Assembly (NCBI GenBank): GCA_003141715.1
Contig: PLNF01000140.1
Span: forward strand, 27,427 to 91,426
Reading direction: 5' to 3'
Source of the DNA: Bacteroidales bacterium
GTDB lineage: Bacteria > Bacteroidota > Bacteroidia > Bacteroidales > VadinHA17
DNA length: 64,000 nt
The notes under the pieces were generated by a model. The model did not search any database. It had not been told where the DNA came from and saw only the letters and a list, made by a program, of their open reading frames with translations. Both the position numbers and the translations under genes were made by a program. Positions 3,624-63,399 of the stretch are shown piece by piece. Each line of letters opens with the position of its first letter. The first letter of the stretch is position 1.

Positions 3624-4469
3624 ATGAAAACAATTATTGTTCCCCTGGATTTTTCAAATGAGTCACTGGAAGGTTTGAATATGGCGTTGATGCTGGCTAA
3701 AAAAACCGGGGCAAATGTTCAAATGGTACATGTTATCGGGAAAAATATCGATAATAATGTTGAGCTTCTTGAAAAGGAAAATCAGCTGGCAAACAGGAAA
3801 TTTGAAGAAATCCTGAAAAAATGCAAAGAGGGGGGAAATATTAATTGTGCCTTGAATTACACAATTAAAGAAGGTAAGATATTCAGTGAAATAACAGACC
3901 TGGCAGATAAGTTTGAAGATTCTCTGATAGTGCTTTCCACTCATGGGGAGTCAGGCTTTGAAGAATTGTTCATTGGAGGTAATGCTTACAAAATAACCTC
4001 CCATTCCAAGAATCCTGTGATCACAGTCAGAAAAAGCAAAATATCATCAAATATTGATAAAATAGTTTTGCCCCTGGATATTACCCTGCAGACACGCGAA
4101 AAAGTTCCATATACCGTAAAGTTGGCAAAGCTGTTTAATTCTGAAATTCACCTGATTACAGTAAGAGCTTCGCATTTAAAAAGTATTGAAAAAAAGCTTT
4201 ATAAATATACCGAACAGGTGTGCTCTTATTTTGGGGATCACGACATTCCATATAAAGTTGAGCATCTTACGGGTGGCAATCTGACTGATATAATCCTCGA
4301 TTATTCAGTATCTGTAAATGCTGACCTTATTTCAATAATGACCGAGCAGGAGAGGAGTGTTTCCAATTTGCTTTTGGGCACATATGCTCACCAAATGATA
4401 AACAAGGCCTGTATCCCTGTTTTATCCTTTCCAACATATCATTTGGGTAATTACGCAGAGGATTTATGA
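3624..4469 (+). CDS. Universal stress protein, tandem UspA domains
   Basis: 281 aa with two Usp-like halves (MKTIIVPLDFS... and KIVLPLDIT...). Each half ends in a G-rich ATP-binding-like segment (STHGESGFEELFIGGNAYKI; LLLGTYAHQMI). Confidence 0.8.
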   Translation: MKTIIVPLDFSNESLEGLNMALMLAKKTGANVQMVHVIGKNIDNNVELLEKENQLANRKFEEILKKCKEGGNINCALNYTIKEGKIFSEITDLADKFEDSLIVLSTHGESGFEELFIGGNAYKITSHSKNPVITVRKSKISSNIDKIVLPLDITLQTREKVPYTVKLAKLFNSEIHLITVRASHLKSIEKKLYKYTEQVCSYFGDHDIPYKVEHLTGGNLTDIILDYSVSVNADLISIMTEQERSVSNLLLGTYAHQMINKACIPVLSFPTYHLGNYAEDL

Positions 4470-20132: not shown

Positions 20133-21467
20133 CTAATTCAGATCAACGATTAAATCATTATCCTTAGGGGGTAGATCAGTATACAAACCATAAATTATAT
20201 TTGCCAGATCGGGTGAAATTGCAGCAATTGCCTGAATCTCTGTATTTGTCTCAGCCGAAAGAGTCTCATCTCCCCCAAAATGTGTCAGCATAGCCTCAGC
20301 AAAAACAGGAGAAATCTGAGTTGCAACATCTTCAGGCACATTATAAGGTGCGCTCATGAGCATATATTTAGCCTGAATTTCAAACCCATTCAGTGAAAAG
20401 GCTTTTTCATATTCGGGGAAGGGAACCCCATTTAATCCAGGGTAGTTTATGTGTTCAATATGTTCTGTTTTGATATATAGCTTATTATTAACCAGATTTA
20501 TCATTCTGTATGGAGAAGCATAAATCACGGGAGAGCCTGTCTCTATATCAACCAGTGACAGGTTACCAAGAATGCGTTGTGTAGCATCGTTTGCATGGAA
20601 ATGACCCGTAAACATTACTTTTAAGCCTGCCTTCATAAACTCATCGGCCCTGGCACCCCAGTTATCGACAAGATAGTCGGGAAATATTACTGATTCACCC
20701 ATGAAATGCTCGACGATTCCATGATGCATCATTCCAATAACGGTTTTGCCCTTCGCTCTGGCATCAGCGAGCTGTTTCTTTGCCCATTGCATGGTAGCGT
20801 CTTTAATATTCCCGGCCACTACACAGTAAAGCGGTGTATTGTTATAATATTCATTGGCATCAATGGCCAGAATGCGCAGGTCTTTAAAAGGTTCCGAAAC
20901 ATAACTCAATGAGGCGGGATCTTTCGCTATAGCAGTCTTGTAACCATAATCTGCATACAACGATTTAAAGTTGTCTGGTGTGATGGTTGGTACCGGGACA
21001 GTATTATCTCCATTAAATAGTTTTGCGTCAGGATTGTTAATGTCATGGTTCCCTGGTATAACTAGAACCTTAATATGGTTTAAGCTTAAAATCTGTAATT
21101 GTTTTATAATCGATTTGTGGCTTATAAGCTCGCCATCTTTGGTAAGGTCGCCTGAAATTAATACCAGATCAGGCTTTTCAACCAATAACCTGTGTATGAT
21201 CTCATGCAGAATGGCTCCACTTTCAGCCAATAATTTTGGGTCCTGCATAAGGTACATCTGAAATGCACTTCCGTCTTCCTTAAGCAATGATGGGTCCATA
21301 TAGTGCAGGTCAGATAAAACGGCAATTTTCAAGGTGTTAGGACTGAAAATAAAGTTGTTATCATTGGATTTTGGCGCTGGTTGAAAACACAGTTCCTGGT
21401 CCTCTTTGTTACAGGCGACAATGGCGAGTAACATAAAAATGGGAACAAAAATTCTAAATTTTTTCAT
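20133..21467 (-). CDS. Metallophosphoesterase (calcineurin-like) lipoprotein
   Basis: Signal peptide with Cys (LLAIVACNK). Phosphoesterase motifs DLHYMD, GDLTKDGE, GNHD and GHFH. Preceded by regulatory module copy A. Confidence 0.8.
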   Translation of the reverse strand: MKKFRIFVPIFMLLAIVACNKEDQELCFQPAPKSNDNNFIFSPNTLKIAVLSDLHYMDPSLLKEDGSAFQMYLMQDPKLLAESGAILHEIIHRLLVEKPDLVLISGDLTKDGELISHKSIIKQLQILSLNHIKVLVIPGNHDINNPDAKLFNGDNTVPVPTITPDNFKSLYADYGYKTAIAKDPASLSYVSEPFKDLRILAIDANEYYNNTPLYCVVAGNIKDATMQWAKKQLADARAKGKTVIGMMHHGIVEHFMGESVIFPDYLVDNWGARADEFMKAGLKVMFTGHFHANDATQRILGNLSLVDIETGSPVIYASPYRMINLVNNKLYIKTEHIEHINYPGLNGVPFPEYEKAFSLNGFEIQAKYMLMSAPYNVPEDVATQISPVFAEAMLTHFGGDETLSAETNTEIQAIAAISPDLANIIYGLYTDLPPKDNDLIVDLN

Positions 21468-21500: not shown

Positions 21501-21729
21501 TTTTCGACATTCGCTCCCTACTCTTTAAAGGATTTTCAGGTACCTCCTTATATTCCTGCATTTAAGCAGGCAACTTTACATAAGTTAGGGATTTAAGTTA
21601 AAGGGGTAATTCAATAATCGGGCCAATTCATATATCTATGTGACACACAGATGTTTAAAAACAATCAGCATTTTTAGTTGAGTTATTTTTGTAGCGTTTT
21701 GCTACAGTGAGCTGATTCAGAATACTACA
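21501..21729 (-). promoter_or_regulatory. Regulatory module copy A (sigma-54-like -24/-12, TGTAGC dyads, conserved leader)
   Basis: Alignable end to end with 24447-24679. Minus strand reads TTGGCCCGATTATTGAA at 21626-21610. TGTAGCGTTTTGCTACA at 21690-21706. CCTGC-N6-GCAGG at 21555-21570. The conserved leader block 21501-21550 ends 34 nt before start codon 21467. Confidence 0.6.
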
Positions 21730-21784: not shown

Positions 21785-22291
21785 TCATTGGAAATTAATT
21801 AATAAAGTCAATCCAACAGAAACTTCATTATTAAACTTGAAATAGTCATAAGAACCCACGTATGGCAATAACTGAAAGTTAAATGTCGTTTTGACCTGAT
21901 CTCTGAATACCATATTATTCACTTTGGCTACATGAATAGCGTCAAAGAGCGACCAGAGATGAAGTCCCCCCAACACCCAACGCACTGTATTAAGCGATAT
22001 TACGTTGCTAAAAGATCCACTGAAAGGCCTCTTTCTGATTCTATATTTAATAATATTTAAACCAACAAAGCCTCCAAAAAAACCGAAACCTCTGGCTGTT
22101 TCGCCCTCCAGAATCTGACCTAACCCGGGTATAACAAAAGAAGCAAACCCCATAACTCCGGGATTAAAAGGATCCCCATACTGATAATGGTAAGCCTTAA
22201 GATCATACTTCGTTTTATTGATGCTGTATTGGGCATCTGTCATCAGGTTAAGAATAATTAGTCCTGCTATTATCAAAGCTAAAATTTTCAT
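21785..22291 (-). CDS. Hypothetical envelope protein, PGLGQ-motif family (paralog of 22362-23126)
   Basis: ATG 22289-22291 gives the signal-like N-terminus MKILALIIAGLIILNLMTDAQ; the ORF-track TTG 22384 overlaps the upstream gene. Shares GDPFNP...IPGLGQ... and LWSLFDAIHVAKVNNMVFR blocks with the neighbour. Confidence 0.6.
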   Translation of the reverse strand: MKILALIIAGLIILNLMTDAQYSINKTKYDLKAYHYQYGDPFNPGVMGFASFVIPGLGQILEGETARGFGFFGGFVGLNIIKYRIRKRPFSGSFSNVISLNTVRWVLGGLHLWSLFDAIHVAKVNNMVFRDQVKTTFNFQLLPYVGSYDYFKFNNEVSVGLTLLINFQ

Positions 22292-22361: not shown

Positions 22362-23126
22362 TTAAAAGGTAACCTTAAAACCAAGAGCTATAGGAATATT
22401 GTGTTTAAGACCATAATCAGGCGTGTTCAGGAAGGGCTTAATATTAAGATTATATGAGGATCTGTGCTTGATTCTCAGGACTAAATTATTGACTTTAGCC
22501 ACGTTTACAGCATCTGCTATGGACCATAGATCGATACATAAAGCGCCAACGAGTCCGGCTTTGAATACCTGAAATGGGTCCACACCATAATTTCCACCGG
22601 CGCTTGACCAATACTTAAATAATCCCTCTGCTGAAACTGCCAGACAACCTGTGAAACCCGTAAGGAATAGTACTCCTCTCCCTGGTTTTCCTGATATCAT
22701 TTGGCCCAGTCCGGGAATTATCAAAGATGCAATACCGGCACTGATTGGATTAAATGGATCACTCTTTTTAAAGGAGTATGCCCTGGTGTCGATTGAGATT
22801 TTCGTAATACCATCAAGCGGAATGCTTATTTCATCGTTATTTATTCTTATTAACGAATCATTTGAGACATATATTTTGAACTTTTCATCTATTGAATAAT
22901 TACCCTTGCCAAAATCTACTTTGCCTGAAATTCTCCCGTTTGAGATTACGGCGTTTTTGACAAAGGTGTAAGTTGATTTTTTCCCGTGAAATGAATAATT
23001 CCCGCCAGAAACGGGCAGATCAGTTTTATTAATAAATTTTGCGCTGTAACAACCTGTTATTTGTAAAAACGTTATGAAGATCACTAATTTACAGCTGATC
23101 TTTAGAAGTTGTGAATGATTTCTCAT
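22362..23126 (-). CDS. Hypothetical lipoprotein, PGLGQ-motif family
   Basis: Lipobox FLQITGC. N-terminal beta-rich domain, then SDPFNPISAGIASLIIPGLGQMISGKPGRG and DLWSIADAVNVAKVNNLVLR. Ends ...ALGFKVTF, an OMP-like aromatic C-terminus. Confidence 0.6.
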   Translation of the reverse strand: MRNHSQLLKISCKLVIFITFLQITGCYSAKFINKTDLPVSGGNYSFHGKKSTYTFVKNAVISNGRISGKVDFGKGNYSIDEKFKIYVSNDSLIRINNDEISIPLDGITKISIDTRAYSFKKSDPFNPISAGIASLIIPGLGQMISGKPGRGVLFLTGFTGCLAVSAEGLFKYWSSAGGNYGVDPFQVFKAGLVGALCIDLWSIADAVNVAKVNNLVLRIKHRSSYNLNIKPFLNTPDYGLKHNIPIALGFKVTF

Positions 23127-23173: not shown

Positions 23174-23653
23174 TCAGAAACTGTAAGTTAAGCTAAATCC
23201 TGAACAATATGATCGTGTATAACTGTTTAAGATTATTGCCGGAGAGATATTCACCGATCCTAACGATGGATAATTTCTACTGATTACTGATTTAATCGTG
23301 CCGATCCGGCCGAGACAAACTATGCTGGCAATTGAACCTGCGATAAATGTTCCTGCACCGATTATCATTCCGACATCATCTACCCCTTCATCACCAAGCA
23401 GTTGTTCAAAGAAAGATGGATCATCGCTCATTCCCGGATGCAGGTACTTGCAAATAAGAAAGATAGCTCCTCCTGTCCCTGCAAATCCGGCAGCAAGCTT
23501 AAGACCGGTTTTTGAATGCACTAATGATTCTTCAAGCTGGCCTCTTGTAAGAAGATTAATATCTGTGACCTGATACCTTTTAACATACCATTGCCCTGAC
23601 GAATTAATAACATAGATTAACAGGAGAAATGCTGATATAAATACTTTTTTCAT
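23174..23653 (-). CDS. Hypothetical secreted/membrane protein
   Basis: Signal peptide MKKVFISAFLLLIYVINSSGQ. Two Gly-rich hydrophobic segments (LAAGFAGTGGAIFLI; MIIGAGTFIAGSIASIVCL). C-terminus ...GFSLTYSF. I recognise no family. Confidence 0.55.
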   Translation of the reverse strand: MKKVFISAFLLLIYVINSSGQWYVKRYQVTDINLLTRGQLEESLVHSKTGLKLAAGFAGTGGAIFLICKYLHPGMSDDPSFFEQLLGDEGVDDVGMIIGAGTFIAGSIASIVCLGRIGTIKSVISRNYPSLGSVNISPAIILNSYTRSYCSGFSLTYSF

Positions 23654-23755: not shown

Positions 23756-24412
23756 CTAGTTGGAACCCAGTAACACCGTGAAACCAAGTTTGAAAGCTAT
23801 CGTTCCCTGGACTGTCCTTTCATCATTCGGATTATTTTCTTTTGCTTTTTCTGATGTCGAATTATAACCAGCCATCATATCGAATGTAACTTTATCACCA
23901 AGTTTTACGGCCAGCCCGGCTCCTCCTCCAAATGACGTGAGACTGTTCTTGTTTGAACTACTGGAATATGGATCTTCATATTTGTTTGTCTCTGATCCAA
24001 ATAGACTACTTATCTCAAAGAAAGGCATAACCTTACTTCCGGAAATGTAATATCGAATAAATGGTCCCAGACCGAAAGAAGTCATAGTGCTTTTCCCGCC
24101 ACTCTTAGGTTTATCTATGGAAGTTCCAATACACAAATTCAAACCCAGAGCCAGATTGTTAAAGAAAAAATATCCAAACTTAGGTAAGAGATTTAAGGTC
24201 GTTACCTTTAGAACGTCAGGATCTACATTAGTTAGTAAGTTTGCTTTGTATTTAATGCTGGAAAATCCCAGGCTCATCAGGTCCGATCCATAATTGATAT
24301 ACCCAAATGATGTTGAAAGACCAATTAGTGATCTGCCTTTGCTTACTTGGGCTTCGGTCACTGATAAAGCAATTAAGCACAAAACCGTAATTAAAATAGT
24401 TACTTTTTTCAT
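23756..24412 (-). CDS. Small outer-membrane beta-barrel protein (OmpW/OMP_b-brl-like)
   Basis: ATG 24410-24412 gives MKKVTILITVLCLIALSVTEAQ. Alternating amphipathic beta-strands with G/S/N/D turns. The ORF-track start at 24460 falls inside the conserved leader block, which is interrupted by an in-frame stop in copy A. Confidence 0.65.
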   Translation of the reverse strand: MKKVTILITVLCLIALSVTEAQVSKGRSLIGLSTSFGYINYGSDLMSLGFSSIKYKANLLTNVDPDVLKVTTLNLLPKFGYFFFNNLALGLNLCIGTSIDKPKSGGKSTMTSFGLGPFIRYYISGSKVMPFFEISSLFGSETNKYEDPYSSSSNKNSLTSFGGGAGLAVKLGDKVTFDMMAGYNSTSEKAKENNPNDERTVQGTIAFKLGFTVLLGSN

Positions 24413-24446
24413 TGTCTGAAATATTGCGTTTTGCTTACTCTTAAGT

Positions 24447-24679
24447 TTTTCAGCATTCACTCCCTACTCTTTAAAGGATTTTCAGGTATCTCCTTAATTG
24501 CCTGCATCCAAGCAGGCAATTTTAATCAGGTTAAAAACATACTATTGATAAAGGAGGAATTCAATAATCGGGCCAATTCATATATTTATATGACATACAG
24601 TCATTTAGAAGCACTGATCATTTTCAATTGAATTGTTTTTGTAGCGTTTTACTACAATTAATTGATTCAGAACGCTACA
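24447..24679 (-). promoter_or_regulatory. Regulatory module copy B (sigma-54-like -24/-12, TGTAGC dyads, conserved leader)
   Basis: Minus strand reads TTGGCCCGATTATTGAA at 24576-24560. TGTAGCGTTTTACTACA at 24640-24656. AACGCTACA at 24671-24679. Perfect ATTGCCTGC-N6-GCAGGCAAT at 24497-24520. The leader block 24447-24496 ends 35 nt before start codon 24412. Confidence 0.6.
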
Positions 24680-24696
24680 ATTATTATCTTTACTAA

Positions 24697-24719
24697 TATT
24701 TGCCTGTTGACAGCAAATA
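24697..24719. promoter_or_regulatory. Near-perfect palindrome TATTTGCCTGT-TG-ACAGCAAATA, 19 nt upstream of the response-regulator ATG
   Basis: Read directly from the sequence. It shares the TTGCCTG half-site with 24497-24520 and 27648-27671. Confidence 0.4.
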
Positions 24720-24737
24720 ATCATTCATATACCTTAT

Positions 24738-26123
24738 ATGAAATCAGACAGATCTGGTAGCGTATTGGTCGTTGACGATGATAATGATGTTTTATATACG
24801 GCACGGCTTGTATTAAGAGGCCTGTTTGGCAAAGTTGATACGCTTGATCGTCCGGGTTTAATACCTGATTACCTGAAAACATGCAAGTATGATGTGATTT
24901 TACTTGACATGAATTATACCCGCGGCTGCACATCAGGCAAAGAAGGATTGGAATGGCTTGAAAAAATACTTAGTATTGATCCCACAGCCTGCGTGTTAAC
25001 CACTACTGCTTACGGTGAAATAAACCTGGCTGTTCAGGCTATGAAAAAAGGTGCAGTCGATTTCATTACAAAACCATGGAACCGGGAACAGCTTGTTACA
25101 TGTGTAAGTAATGTTTTGTCAATGGAACCTGGGGAGAGAAGTGTCAGCAAGGTTAAGGGTAATCACACCAGACCAGTAAATCAGGGGAACAATAAATACC
25201 CTGAAATTATCAGCAGGTCTCCAGTCATGGCTAAAATAATGGAAACCATTAAAACAGTTGCTGCGACAGATGCCAATGTTTTAATCCTCGGGGAAAATGG
25301 AACAGGCAAGGAGCTGGCAGCCTGGGCTTTGCACAGGGAATCATTAAGAAGTCAGAACTCCTTCGTTCACGTTGATCTGGGCTCTATTCCTGAAACTCTT
25401 TTTGAAGCTGAATTATTCGGCCATACACGTGGTGCTTTTACAGATGCAAAGGAAGACCGGGCTGGAAGATTTGAAGTAGCTTCCGGTGGAACATTATTTC
25501 TCGATGAGATAGGAAACCTCAGCATGCCATTACAGGCAAAGATTCTTACTGCGATTCAGAACAGGGAAGTGGTCAGGATAGGAAGTAACCATCCAGTACC
25601 TGTAAATATCAGGCTGATATCAGCCACTAATATGCCTTTGTACGAAATGGCTGATGCGTTCGAATTCAGGCAGGATCTCCTCTATCGTATTAACACAGTT
25701 GAGATAATGCTCCCCCCACTAAGAGAAAGAAGAGAAGATATCAGCCTCCTCGCAGATTATTATCTTGAACTTTTTTCCAGGCAATATGGCAAACAAGGAA
25801 TAAAACTTAAGGAAGATACATTACAGAAACTGAAAGAGTACCACTGGCCGGGAAATATCAGGGAACTTGCGCACACCATTGAAAGAGCGATCATCCTGTG
25901 CAAATGCAGTACCCTAACACCTGATGATTTTATGCTGCGGGTAAAATCTTCACGTGGTCAACTTACTGATGAACCTGCAATCAGTGTTGAAGATTATGAA
26001 AAAAAAGCAATCAGCACAGCTATGAACAAACATAATGGGAACCTTTCGAAAGCAGCGGAAGAAATAGGCATTGCCCGGAGTACCCTGTACCGGAAGATTG
26101 CCCGATTCGGGATAGAAACCTGA
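24738..26123 (+). CDS. Sigma-54-dependent response regulator (NtrC family enhancer-binding protein)
   Basis: REC domain (VLVVDDDNDV...DVILLDMNY), AAA+ sigma-54 interaction domain (Walker A GENGTGKE, GAFTDA variant of the GAFTGA loop, LFLDEIG), C-terminal Fis-type HTH (AAEEIGIARSTLYRKI). Confidence 0.9.
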   Translation: MKSDRSGSVLVVDDDNDVLYTARLVLRGLFGKVDTLDRPGLIPDYLKTCKYDVILLDMNYTRGCTSGKEGLEWLEKILSIDPTACVLTTTAYGEINLAVQAMKKGAVDFITKPWNREQLVTCVSNVLSMEPGERSVSKVKGNHTRPVNQGNNKYPEIISRSPVMAKIMETIKTVAATDANVLILGENGTGKELAAWALHRESLRSQNSFVHVDLGSIPETLFEAELFGHTRGAFTDAKEDRAGRFEVASGGTLFLDEIGNLSMPLQAKILTAIQNREVVRIGSNHPVPVNIRLISATNMPLYEMADAFEFRQDLLYRINTVEIMLPPLRERREDISLLADYYLELFSRQYGKQGIKLKEDTLQKLKEYHWPGNIRELAHTIERAIILCKCSTLTPDDFMLRVKSSRGQLTDEPAISVEDYEKKAISTAMNKHNGNLSKAAEEIGIARSTLYRKIARFGIET

Positions 26124-26202: not shown

Positions 26203-27618
26203 ATGCAAAAACTCTGGAATTATATTTCAAACCTTGGAACGACCGGAGAAGATAAACAGTTGAATAACAGAACCATTGTTCTTAGTAATCAGCTCAATTT
26301 TGTGATGTTCTTCTCTATGTTTTTATTGCTACTAACAACTATTGTTACTCTTCTGCTAACAAATGATACTATTTATTATGGAACACTACGGGTGGCGATC
26401 CTTCTGATTGTTACCTTTTTGAACATGCTACTTGCACGATATGGTTTTATTCAACTTAGCAGGCTCTCTCTTATCTATCTGCCTCCAATAGTATTCCTGC
26501 TTGGCCCGACATTGATAGGATATGTAGAGGAGGAAAGTTATACTTATTACCCTTACGTCTTGATTTGTGTCTCGATAATCCCACAACTTTTACTACATCC
26601 AAAGAATGAAAAACTTCTCTATTGGTTTTCTCTGGCTTATTATTTTGTTTTAGTCATATTCATTGACAAAATAATGGTTAAGTTTGGAACAACCAGTTTC
26701 CCGATTGTCGACAGGATTAATACTTTTTATCCTTTCTACAAAATTGCGCAAATAGGACTTTTCATGTTTATAAACGCCAGCATCTATTACCTTCGGATGC
26801 TTAATTTCCATTTTGAGGAGATATTGAACTCTAAGAACAATGAACTTGACCTGCAAAATATAGAGTTGAGAGCTCAGAAAGATGAGATTGAACGGCAAAA
26901 GGATGAACTGGTCAGTAAAGAGATCAATACATGGCAGAAACTGGTAAATATTATATCTCACGAGATAGTGAACTCAGCCATCCCGATTACCAATCTTGCC
27001 GGGATGACTGCTCAAATGCTTGAAGATGAGTCGGGGGTAGTTCAGAAACCCGATAAAATCGGCGAGGAGGTTACCGAAGATATTCACTACAGCTTAAGAA
27101 TTATTGAATCCCGTACGCAGGGATTGATTAATTTTGTAAAGGCTACAAAAAGTCTTACTGATATTCCTAAGCCAAACCTGCGGAAGATTTTCCTGCGTGA
27201 TCTATTCGAACGGGTTTTTATACTTTACAAGGCTAAGTTTAAGGAAACAGGCGTAAAGTTTGAAATGGAAATTATTCCCCCTGCCCTTTTTATTGAGGCC
27301 GACCTGGAACTTATTGAGCAGGTAATCATAAATCTTTTTCAGAATGCACTGGAAGCTATGCTGGAAACTTCAGATCCCGGACTTTCAATAATTGCGAGAA
27401 AAAATGAATCAGGTCATGTACAGATATCAATTTCTGATAATGGTAAAGGCATTAGTGATGAAGTACTCGAACGGATATTCCTCCCTTTTTATTCTACAAA
27501 AGCTAATAACTCGGGAATCGGCTTGAGTCTGTCACAACAGATAATGATGCTGCATCATGCCCGTCTCGAAGTAAGTTCCACTATAAATAAGGGTGCAACT
27601 TTTATAATGATATTCTAA
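26203..27618 (+). CDS. Membrane sensor histidine kinase
   Basis: About 6 N-terminal TM helices, a coiled-coil, the H-box IISHEIVNSAIPITNL, and an HATPase_c domain (NLFQNALEA, SDNGKGI, GIGLSLSQQI). Confidence 0.85.
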   Translation: MQKLWNYISNLGTTGEDKQLNNRTIVLSNQLNFVMFFSMFLLLLTTIVTLLLTNDTIYYGTLRVAILLIVTFLNMLLARYGFIQLSRLSLIYLPPIVFLLGPTLIGYVEEESYTYYPYVLICVSIIPQLLLHPKNEKLLYWFSLAYYFVLVIFIDKIMVKFGTTSFPIVDRINTFYPFYKIAQIGLFMFINASIYYLRMLNFHFEEILNSKNNELDLQNIELRAQKDEIERQKDELVSKEINTWQKLVNIISHEIVNSAIPITNLAGMTAQMLEDESGVVQKPDKIGEEVTEDIHYSLRIIESRTQGLINFVKATKSLTDIPKPNLRKIFLRDLFERVFILYKAKFKETGVKFEMEIIPPALFIEADLELIEQVIINLFQNALEAMLETSDPGLSIIARKNESGHVQISISDNGKGISDEVLERIFLPFYSTKANNSGIGLSLSQQIMMLHHARLEVSSTINKGATFIMIF

Positions 27619-38922: not shown

Positions 38923-39011
<89 letters not shown>

Positions 39012-61290: not shown

Positions 61291-63399
61291 ATGGCAAAGA
61301 GGGATGAAATAATATGGCGTGGAGCTCTGGTATATTTTATAATTGGATTACTGGCTGTGGCACTGCTTGTACGCATCCTTATTCTGCAATATGTTCAGCG
61401 TACCAAATGGGCAGATATGAGTGAGAAATTTGTCTTTAAAACTGCCGAAATGCCTGCAAACAGGGGCGATATACTTACCAGTGATGGGCGCCTCCTTGCA
61501 AGCTCGGTTCCATATTATACAATCTATATGGACACCCGAAGCAGTGGAATGTCTTCTGCTACATGGTCGACTGGAATTAACGGATTATCCACAGGACTGG
61601 CTCAACTCTTAGGCGAAAGATCCGCTTCAGGTTGGAAATCAGAAATATCAGAGGCCAGGGAAAAGGGTGATCGCTATTTCCTCATTCAACGGAAAGTTGA
61701 CTATGAAACACTTAAAAAGCTGAAAGAACTTCCAATATTCAGAGAGGGTCAGTATAAAGGGGGCATGGTACCTCAGGCTGAAAACAGAAGGATACTCCCG
61801 GGTGGTGATCTTGCAGCCCGGACCATCGGTTATCTCAATCTGGGAAGTGAAGGCAATGAGGTTGGCATAGAGGGTGCTTTTGATAAAGATCTGGCAGGGA
61901 AAAACGGTGTTGCTATGAAACAAAGGCTTACAGGAGGCGACTGGATAACTGTTGATGGTCCAAACAGTGTTGAATCGAAAGACGGGAATGATATTGTAAC
62001 TACTCTTGATCTCGATCTGCAGGATGTAGCAACTACTGCGCTTCTGAATCAGCTCAGGAAAAATGACGCTGACCATGGCTGCGCGGTACTAATGGAGGTT
62101 TCAACAGGAAATATTAAAGCCATTGTTAATCTTGGTCTTCAAAGCGATGGGAAATATCACGAATCATATAACTACGCCATTGCCGAGAGCACCGAACCGG
62201 GTTCAACATTTAAGCTCCCGTCTCTTATGGCCGCAATTGAAGATGGGGTAATTGATACAGGTGATATTGTCGACACCGGTAATGGAAGTGTGAAATTCTA
62301 CGACAGGGTTATCAAGGACACAAAAGAACATGGCATAATAACAGTCAAACAGGTATTTGAAGAATCATCTAATGTGGGAACCTCTAAGCTTATCTACGAG
62401 CATTACAAAGACAAACCTAAAGATTTCGTGAACCGGCTTTATGCCATGAGATTGAATAAGCCACTTGATCTGCAGATAAAAGGGGAAGGGGAACCTCTTA
62501 TCAGATATCCCGGAGATAAATTATGGTCGGGAGTTTCATTGCCGATGATGTCACATGGTTACGAAGTACAGCTGACACCATTGCAAATACTAACTTTCTA
62601 TAATGCCGTAGCAAATGACGGGAAAATGATGCGCCCGCTTTTTGTGACTGCAATCATGAGAAATGGAAGCATTATAAAGAGCTTCGAACCTGAGGTCATA
62701 ATCAACTCGATAGCATCTCGTTCAACAATACGGAAAGCTAAAAAAATGATGGAGGGAGTAGTTGAACGCGGTACTGCAACTAATCTTAGAAACCCCAATT
62801 ATAAAATTGCAGGAAAAACAGGGACCGCTCAGATAGCAAAAAATAAGTATGGTTACAAAACCGGCACAAGCGTATCGTATTCGGCCTCTTTTGTAGGGTA
62901 TTTTCCTGCTGAGAATCCTCTCTATTCCTGTATAGTTGTAGTTAATTCCCCTTCAAACGGGGTTTATTTCGGAAACGTGGTGGCAGGAACCGTCTTCAAG
63001 GAGATCTCTGATAAGGTTTATGCAACAAGGTTTTTCAGGGATTTCAAACCCGAAAAAAAAGATGAAATAAAACCATCTGCTCCTGATGCCGGTAACGGAT
63101 ACAGGGCCGATATAAACGAAGTGCTTAAAAACCTCGATGTCAGGTATCGGCGTACTGCTGATGATGACTGGGTTGCTACCCGGGAAAGTGGCGATACTGT
63201 AAGTCTGGCGGGTGTGAAGATACTGCCTGGTCTTATACCTGATGTGAGAGGAATGAGTCTGCGTGATGCGGTCTATCTCCTTGAAAACAATGGGTTAAGA
63301 GTTAAAATCAGTGGAAAAGGAAAGGTGCTGAGACAATCTCCTGAACATGGTGCAAGGTACAATGAAGGGACAGTCGTTTCTCTCGAGATGAATATGTGA
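61291..63399 (+). CDS. ftsI: Penicillin-binding protein (FtsI/PBP3-type transpeptidase) with a C-terminal PASTA domain
   Basis: N-terminal TM, dimerisation domain, transpeptidase motifs STFK (GSTFKL), SSN (ESSNVG) and KTGT. The C-terminal PASTA-like segment is VRGMSLRDAVYLLENNGLRVKISGKGKVLRQSP. Confidence 0.9.
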   Translation: MAKRDEIIWRGALVYFIIGLLAVALLVRILILQYVQRTKWADMSEKFVFKTAEMPANRGDILTSDGRLLASSVPYYTIYMDTRSSGMSSATWSTGINGLSTGLAQLLGERSASGWKSEISEAREKGDRYFLIQRKVDYETLKKLKELPIFREGQYKGGMVPQAENRRILPGGDLAARTIGYLNLGSEGNEVGIEGAFDKDLAGKNGVAMKQRLTGGDWITVDGPNSVESKDGNDIVTTLDLDLQDVATTALLNQLRKNDADHGCAVLMEVSTGNIKAIVNLGLQSDGKYHESYNYAIAESTEPGSTFKLPSLMAAIEDGVIDTGDIVDTGNGSVKFYDRVIKDTKEHGIITVKQVFEESSNVGTSKLIYEHYKDKPKDFVNRLYAMRLNKPLDLQIKGEGEPLIRYPGDKLWSGVSLPMMSHGYEVQLTPLQILTFYNAVANDGKMMRPLFVTAIMRNGSIIKSFEPEVIINSIASRSTIRKAKKMMEGVVERGTATNLRNPNYKIAGKTGTAQIAKNKYGYKTGTSVSYSASFVGYFPAENPLYSCIVVVNSPSNGVYFGNVVAGTVFKEISDKVYATRFFRDFKPEKKDEIKPSAPDAGNGYRADINEVLKNLDVRYRRTADDDWVATRESGDTVSLAGVKILPGLIPDVRGMSLRDAVYLLENNGLRVKISGKGKVLRQSPEHGARYNEGTVVSLEMNM

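Follow-up and report, generated by a model that had tools for sequence, protein, structure and literature searches.

At glnAp2, NtrC acts as a phosphorylated AAA+ activator from two adjacent 17-bp dyads located ~100-140 bp upstream of a promoter of the form GG-N10-G(C). In the Escherichia coli zraP-zraSR system (ZraR/HydG), which responds to envelope stress, a divergent sigma-54 target is controlled from activator sites in the intergenic region. A locus that shares features with both systems is present in a stretch of 64,000 nucleotides (the window) from a Bacteroidales bacterium of the VadinHA17 lineage (GenBank assembly GCA_003141715.1, contig PLNF01000140.1, positions 27,427 to 91,426 of the forward strand; coordinates below are those of the window). 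We consider it likely that the window carries two enhancer-dependent sigma-54 control regions, P_A and P_B, each followed by a structured 5′ leader. P_B lies next to the genes of a sigma-54 activator and a histidine kinase, which are transcribed divergently from it. The features of the locus are listed in Table 1.

On the minus strand both copies of the element read TGGCCCGATTATTGAA (24575-24560 and 21625-21610), with a T preceding each copy. In P_B the GG occupies positions -25/-24 and the TTGA positions -15 to -12, so that the spacing of the element is GG-N10-GA. The -24 element reads TTGGCC in both copies and the G of the -12 element is found exactly 10 nt past the GG, in agreement with the correctly spaced -24/-12 element that had been predicted at these two places from the sequence. 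A C at -12, which would complete the GC dinucleotide, is absent from both window copies, the base being A; the orthologous sites have A or G at this position.

The weight of the argument rests on comparison across species. Relatives of the activator form >100 clusters at 72-91% identity, from Bacteroidales or Bacteroidota wherever the source names them, and a metagenome scan gave 80 loci with activator relatives (these and the other loci compared below are numbered with the prefix L). Thirteen loci, L056-L066, L069 and L082, in which the activator is 65-89% identical, are orthologous. The sequence [T/C]GG[C/T]C[C/T]G-N4-TTG[A/G] occurs in all thirteen at the same register, upstream of the activator gene and in the divergent direction. 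The GG, the C, the G and the TTG never vary, and the spacer takes several forms (GATAA, GATTG, GGTTG, GATAG, GGTTC, GCCCC). No conservation was found 3′ of the TTG among the thirteen loci, and the target genes are also not conserved in the alignment. The transcription start site (TSS) predicted from the element lies upstream of the start codon in every ortholog, which leaves leaders of at least 17 nt.

A strand asymmetry was found when 76 loci with relatives of the activator were searched for the strict pattern YTGGC[AC][CT]-N5-TTGN within 500 nt upstream of the gene. Strict sites are present on the divergent strand in 27 of the 76 loci and on the activator strand in none, compared to 0.18 predicted from shuffled sequences. 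The base at -12 in these 27 sites is G in 17, A in 8 and T in 2, and is never C. Judged from this sample, A at -12 is typical of the sites of the activator family, and C is not needed in the family.

A position weight matrix (PWM) was used to score the elements against known promoters. The canonical sigma-54 PWM was built from 52 promoters in S2 Table of PMC12316311, comprising 24 from E. coli (EcoCyc) and 28 from Desulfomicrobium baculatum (RegPrecise). The focal 19-mer containing TTGGCCCGATTATTGAA scores 13.9 bits, which corresponds to the 27th percentile when the 52 training sites are scored by leave-one-out. Both copies tie for third place in the window, and the only two better matches, at 61514(-) and 31396(+), lie within genes and have no gene to transcribe behind them. 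The PWM scoring that the original prediction had proposed as a check therefore places the sites within the range of known promoters; it is compatible with sigma-54 and is not decisive.

Several points weigh against a sigma-54 promoter. About 1.2 equally good sites are expected per shuffled 64-kb window, so that a single sequence is not significant by itself. The canonical PWM charges 2.2 bits for A instead of C at -12 and 0.3 bits for C instead of A after TGGC. Another PWM, built from the promoters of paralogous loci, ranks the window sites only ~13th; it was biased by the selection of its sites with TGGCA[CT], gave scores below those of shuffled sequence, and was dropped and replaced by the PWM from published sites. 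Having arisen by a recent duplication, the two window copies amount to a single observation: each promoter sits in a ~265-bp module bounded by the outer CTACA box and by the start codon of the minus-strand gene downstream, identity between the modules is 83%, and the copies are not independent because both lie in this duplicated module. Finally, no RpoN box was found by regular-expression search in the window or in 1.08 Mb of the other loci, a search that did not cover the rest of the genome. In published data, rpoN is listed for 27 of 27 Bacteroidia genera, as the columns of S1 Table read, with about 9 activators per genome reported in Bacteroidia and sigma-54 regulons predicted in Bacteroidota (PMC12316311).

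The significance of the element comes instead from its conservation in the thirteen other loci and from the strand asymmetry over the 76 loci; on these alignments, comparison across species is decisive where the PWM alone is not. The GA at -12, which the original prediction had regarded as a real weakness, does deviate from GC at the cost given above, and is nevertheless the norm in a family in which C occurs in none of the 27 sites. Similar deviations are found among compiled promoters. The fliK site of D. baculatum, TTTGGCCCGCCTTTTGATC, shares the form TGGCCCG...TTGA exactly with the window promoter, and the -12 element reads TTGT in E. coli pspA and pspG and TTGA in D. baculatum fliK, zraP and lpxC (PMC12316311 S2 Table). 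Since compiled promoters deviate likewise, C at -12 is usual but not obligatory in sigma-54 promoters.

The block TGGCC.G-N4-TTG could also be the operator of another protein, or a promoter of another kind (extracytoplasmic function (ECF)-type or unusual sigma-A), with only a coincidental likeness to a -24/-12 element. Such an origin would agree with a PWM score that is not significant alone, with the two deviations at usually conserved positions, and with the lack of an RpoN box in the window and the other loci searched. We regard it as unlikely. The pattern of conservation, a pair of short blocks with a free spacer and with GG and G always 10 nt apart, is that of a -24/-12 element and not of a dyad operator; the block is always directed away from a sigma-54 activator gene (27 vs 0); and in paralogous loci the same TTGG accompanies a canonical TGGCAC. 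A -35/-10 promoter would not fit into the 16-nt span. A TAnnTTTG-type promoter, the alternative named in the original prediction, is absent from the target strand in all 16 promoter regions, each taken from 60 nt before to 200 nt after the conserved element, and in the window region sigma-70-type matches are about as frequent as chance predicts (13 vs 12.4 expected).

The regions upstream of the sigma-54-type elements contain putative upstream activating sequences, UAS1 and UAS2. The UAS1 dyad has the general form TGTAGCGTTTT(G/A)CTACA in both copies, and its centre is ~75 bp from the promoter GG, as had been proposed for an enhancer. In the orthologs the dyad could be found in 12 loci, and in each its start and the promoter T are 64-66 bp apart. 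The dyad is within two mismatches of TGTAGC-N5-GCTACA in 11 of the 13 orthologous loci, being weaker in L065 and degenerate in L064. The further CTACA copies that had been noted, ending at 21729 and 24679, are present, and each also forms part of a second conserved 17-bp box, UAS2, whose centre is 23 bp from that of UAS1. In the alignment of orthologs UAS2 takes the form TGT..C-N5-GA.TCAAT, in which the TGT, the C of the half-site and GA.TCAAT are nearly invariant. This pattern makes UAS2 a candidate second activator site.

Two further stretches around the boxes are conserved. Between the enhancer and the -24 element (window 24577-24617(-) and the equivalent stretches of L056-L082) there are conserved positions in fixed phase, with TA at 32, TG at 24 and TA at 9 upstream of the T of TGGC. 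Several orthologs read TATCTTAT.GTTA here, which loosely resembles a site for IHF, and the stretch may hold a site for a DNA-bending protein. On the other side of the boxes, ATCTTTACTAATATTTG (24680-24737(+)) lies between them and the ATG of the activator gene and is conserved across orthologs; it may hold the promoter of the activator operon itself, with no exact match to TAnnTTTG.

The conserved ATCTTTACTAATATTTG stretch and the position of the dyads, just 60-100 bp upstream of the activator start codon, would be accounted for if only the dyads were functional, serving autoregulation of the activator-kinase operon, and the target genes were read from an unrecognised housekeeping promoter. 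This arrangement seems to us quite improbable. The fixed distance of the dyad is measured to TGGCC, on the target side; copy A has the same dyads and promoter ~3 kb from the activator gene, where autoregulation would make no sense; and the target strand has no housekeeping-type box. That the similarity of the two copies is a neutral relic of recent duplication, as the 83% identity along the whole modules, including stretches not conserved in other species, might suggest, hardly deserves consideration, being already contradicted by the same elements kept in thirteen loci with flanks diverged beyond alignment.

The sequence of the activator supports a sigma-54 promoter as its target. All four of its domains, PF00072, PF00158 (209 bits), PF25601 and PF02954, score above their cut-offs, and the domain matches of both proteins agree with the divergently transcribed sigma-54 enhancer-binding regulator and kinase that had been predicted. 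The phospho-acceptor is most plausibly D57. The activator has a Fis-type helix-turn-helix (HTH) with the recognition helix ARSTLYRKIA, and its sigma-54-contact loop reads GAFTDA rather than GAFTGA. The loop is GAFTDA, GSFTDA or GAYTDA in all 75 relatives examined, and GAFTDA is among the variants compatible with activation in Desulfovibrio vulgaris (PMC4641369). The activator remains below every NCBIfam equivalog cut-off, the best model being PrsR (367 vs 502.6 bits), with lower scores for AtoC (338 vs 714), ntrC (321 vs 558.6) and ZraR (305 vs 760) among others, and therefore belongs to an unnamed subfamily. The N-terminal half of the kinase, as read by eye from the sequence, shows one hydrophobic segment after another and no obvious periplasmic domain, and it looks like a multi-pass membrane-spanning region.

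A paralogous group of activators provides a control for the assignment of the dyads. These activators (L067-L135, e.g. L077, L093, L098 and L130) are 51-54% identical to the focal one and have a GAFTDA or GSFTDA loop. Their loci contain canonical promoters of the form TTGGCAC-N5-TTGG(C), located 40-150 nt upstream of genes of ~415 aa (N-termini like MDKKIAKKKWT) and ~790 aa (like MLKNYFKIAWRNL), whose products we take from these N-termini to be HlyD-like and FtsX-like. The base at -12 among 31 distinct sites of this group is mostly G and rarely C, which points to a TTGG -12 element throughout the clade. Tandem dyads, TGTCCGCA-N-CGGACA and then GTTCACA-N-TGAAC, are found 65-90 bp upstream of the promoter (L073-L130). 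The recognition helix is TRSSLYRRLE in the paralogous group vs ARSTLYRKIA in the focal group, and each is invariant within its group. As far as these two groups show, dyad and recognition helix covary while the geometry is unchanged, as expected if the dyads are the binding sites of the activators.

From these sequences we infer the use of sigma-54, the start sites, the protein that binds the dyads and a role for the leader, and the order of events would be as follows. Sigma-54 RNA polymerase would bind TTGGCCCGATTATTGAA as a closed complex, with the GG at -24 and the TTGA at -12. The membrane-embedded kinase, responding to what is probably an envelope or membrane cue, would phosphorylate the response regulator, whose Fis-type HTH would bind TGTAGC-N5-GCTACA (~-99) and TGTAGC-N5-GAATCA (~-122). 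The regulator would then oligomerise and open the promoter through DNA looping and ATP hydrolysis. Based on the -24/-12 geometry, transcription from P_B would start near 24549 and proceed through the operon 24412-21785, which encodes a barrel like that of an outer-membrane protein (OMP) and three exported proteins; transcription from P_A would start near 21599 and yield the mRNA of the metallophosphoesterase lipoprotein (21467-20133). Both mRNAs would carry a leader of 130-137 nt with a hairpin and the DUF805b RNA motif, presumably for added post-transcriptional control.

Table 1. Coordinates of the regulatory elements and genes of the window, and genes behind the conserved promoter in orthologous loci.
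Feature	Position or locus	Strand	Basis or remark
Sigma-54-type promoter P_B, TTGGCCCGATTATTGAA	24560..24576	-	kept in register in 13 orthologous loci
Sigma-54-type promoter P_A, 17-mer identical to P_B	21610..21626	-	would drive the metallophosphoesterase lipoprotein gene
UAS1 of copy B, dyad TGTAGCGTTTTACTACA	24640..24656		putative enhancer; centre ~-99
UAS1 of copy A, perfect palindrome TGTAGCGTTTTGCTACA	21690..21706		putative enhancer dyad
UAS2 of copy B, 17-bp box, minus strand TGTAGCGTTCTGAATCA	24663..24679		centre ~-122
UAS2 of copy A, 17-bp box, minus strand TGTAGTATTCTGAATCA	21713..21729		alignment of copies and orthologs
Response-regulator enhancer-binding protein	24738..26123	+	REC (PF00072), Sigma54_activat (PF00158), AAA_lid_14 (PF25601), HTH_8 (PF02954)
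Cognate histidine kinase	26203..27618	+	domain and model matches
DUF805b RNA motif (Rfam RF02914), copy B leader	24461..24495	-	42.6 bits vs gathering score 35.6
DUF805b RNA motif, copy A leader	21515..21549	-	44.4 bits vs gathering score 35.6
Leader hairpin UUGCCUGC-UUGGAU-GCAGGCAA, just 5′ of DUF805b	24498..24519	-	predicted fold
Copy A hairpin, shorter version	about 21555-21570	-	predicted fold
Degenerate second DUF805b-like unit GAAUGCUGAAAAACUUAAGAGUAAGCA	24432..24460	-	read from sequence; below Rfam threshold
Operon B gene 1, 218 aa, signal peptide, weak OMP beta-barrel match	23756..24412	-	PF13505, 26.7 bits, below the 28.7 cut-off
Operon B gene 2, 159-aa exported protein, no family match	23174..23653	-	Pfam/NCBIfam
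Operon B gene 3, 254-aa predicted lipoprotein	22362..23126	-	C-terminal domain paralogous to gene 4
Operon B gene 4, ~168 aa, paralogous C-terminal domain, start codon uncertain	21785..22291	-	sequence
P_A target, 444-aa predicted lipoprotein, calcineurin-like metallophosphoesterase domain	20133..21467	-	PF00149, 55.4 bits
YegS/DAGK-type lipid kinase (DAGK_cat + YegS_C), then PEMT-DUF3419 fusion	L057, L063, L064		
Also ~355-aa unknown protein and pyridoxal phosphate (PLP)-dependent decarboxylase	L063, L064		L063 decarboxylase by sequence only
~250-aa OMP-like protein, and a separate metallophosphoesterase gene	L058, L059, L082, L065		metallophosphoesterase next in L058, L059 and L082, farther downstream in L065
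272-aa protein, then 461-aa metallophosphoesterase	L061		
Short-chain dehydrogenase (SDR) and DUF362 protein	L060		

The original prediction is supported as regards the promoter and the dyads of the duplicated module; it missed that the further CTACA copy belongs to a larger conserved box, and also the DUF805b RNA motif in the leader. The predicted fold of the copy B leader has an energy of -31.9 kcal/mol and a z-score of -2.8, and that of copy A a z-score of -0.9. The degenerate second unit of copy B stops ~21 nt before the ATG, and the same tandem form is found in L007, L017, L029 and L065. Among the orthologs, only L069 reaches the Rfam threshold for DUF805b, with both of its copies; the leader of L065 is tandem, recognisably homologous and sub-threshold. 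The window motifs have no DUF805-domain gene downstream, the genes there encoding an OMP_b-brl or a Metallophos domain instead.

For comparison, 46 other Bacteroidota loci were collected as a DUF805b control set, which retrieved a variant of the motif with a loop 1 nt longer than in the window; Rfam confirmed DUF805b in 17 of the 19 control loci tested. A sigma-54-like site is found upstream in one of the 46, which is the chance level. Because of this and of the orthologs that mostly lack the motif, promoter and leader appear to be separable modules that have been joined here. TAnnTTTG was considered as a promoter box of most other DUF805b loci and dropped, with a count of 7 of 46 vs 3.4 expected. 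In L023 (Dawidia cretensis), GCCCGATTATTTGCAAG at ~4050-4075 lies 25 nt upstream of the DUF805b motif and resembles the promoter core of the window; with no GG and one extra T it was rejected as a promoter core and taken as a probable coincidence.

Some other properties of DUF805b loci may be mentioned. In other Bacteroidota loci (L007-L055) an almost constant distance of 20-31 nt (mode 24) separates the 3′ end of the motif (AGAGTAGG) from the start codon, and the sequences suggest a link of the element to translation initiation. The genes that follow it often have signal-peptide-like N-termini. Two or three copies are found in L010 and L052, and tandem units in L007, L017 and L029. Apart from the DUF805b motifs, Rfam matches the window only at an 88-nt tRNA gene (38924-39011(-)).

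The genes behind the conserved promoter vary among species. In the window, all four operon B proteins have signal-peptide-like N-termini, and no Pfam or NCBIfam family matches any of them above threshold; the proteins of genes 3 and 4 are 36% identical over 143 aa. Among the targets, the metallophosphoesterase lipoprotein recurs most often, and its counterpart in L061 is 84% identical to it. Metallophos genes lie behind the conserved promoter of L058 and L061, as recognised by Pfam, and of L059, L065, L069 and L082, as recognised from the sequence. The set of envelope proteins and a phosphoesterase described in the original prediction thus recurs in orthologous loci. The metallophosphoesterase gene has its own complete control module in the window and in L069, a close relative that likewise has two copies of the promoter, the second reading CTGGCCTGATTATTGAA.

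These targets might belong to a response related to the envelope or to membrane lipids, a proposal that we make with low confidence. The lipid kinase, PEMT-DUF3419 and decarboxylase targets of some orthologs hint at a regulon concerned with membrane-lipid modification. DUF3419, which we take to be the BtaA-type family of betaine-lipid synthesis, would be a further hint at lipid remodelling.

It is tempting to ask how far the deviation at -12 extends. We put forward, as a tentative and rather doubtful generalisation, that sigma-54 promoters served by GAFTDA/GSFTDA activators in at least a large clade of Bacteroidota use TTGG or TTGA and not TTGC at -12, which would mean that the fork-junction element has shifted or become relaxed at the level of the lineage. 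If so, standard PWMs would under-score such sites and the window locus would be one well-footprinted example. The enhancer/promoter cassette proximal to the activator would then have captured targets that differ between species, and would be fused here to a DUF805b leader.

The putative regulon is conserved and uncharacterised, and the locus is a well-defined candidate for sigma-54 control in Bacteroidales. It offers a test case with a promoter footprinted across species, two putative activator sites, a two-component pair and recurring targets, namely the metallophosphoesterase lipoprotein and small outer-membrane or exported proteins. Caution in annotation is also advised, since C at -12 is absent in the family and proteobacterial PWMs under-call such promoters. 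There is a gap in the reference data: rpoN and activators are reported for Bacteroidia, yet a name search of the promoter table of a 720-promoter compilation returns no Bacteroides, Flavobacterium, Porphyromonas or Cytophaga entries (PMC12316311).

We have compared the locus with the described systems closest to it. PrsK/PrsR, associated with PEP-CTERM, supplies the best NCBIfam model for the activator, which matches PrsR over the full length at a score below the cut-off; the PrsK model is among the matches of the kinase, where it covers just the catalytic part at the C-terminus. Domain annotation of the surroundings showed no PEP-CTERM or exosortase genes. As in other Bacteroidota DUF805b loci (RF02914; PMC5737381), a hairpin precedes the motif and copies can be tandem or multiple per locus. 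The window motif differs in following a sigma-54-type promoter, and it lacks the downstream DUF805-domain gene from which the motif takes its name. Enrichment of COG0577 has been reported for Bacteroidota sigma-54 promoters upstream of ABC transporter genes (PMC12316311). The paralogous loci with presumed HlyD/FtsX-type genes have an activator of the same family, the same layout, tandem dyads at 65-90 bp and a non-C base (G) at -12. In contrast, their -24 element (TGGCAC), dyads, HTH helix and targets all differ from those of the window.

The geometry is that of NtrC at glnAp2, with dyad centres at ~-99 and ~-122 upstream of a GG-N10-G promoter. The window differs from that system in its dyad TGTAGC-N5-GCTACA, in GAFTDA instead of GAFTGA and in TTGA at -12; its regulon seems to be related to the envelope and not to nitrogen, and the ntrC score is below the cut-off. 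Compared to zraP-zraSR, the regulator gene of the window precedes that of the kinase, the kinase appears to have a multi-pass N-terminus in place of a periplasmic sensor, the regulator operon has no sigma-54 site directed towards it, the targets bear no relation to ZraP, and the activator, far below the ZraR cut-off, is not ZraR. The likeness to zraP-zraSR lies in the overall design: an activator with REC, AAA+ and Fis-type HTH domains, a divergent envelope-protein target and shared intergenic sites, and it extends to one compiled D. baculatum zraP site, which also has TTGA at -12.

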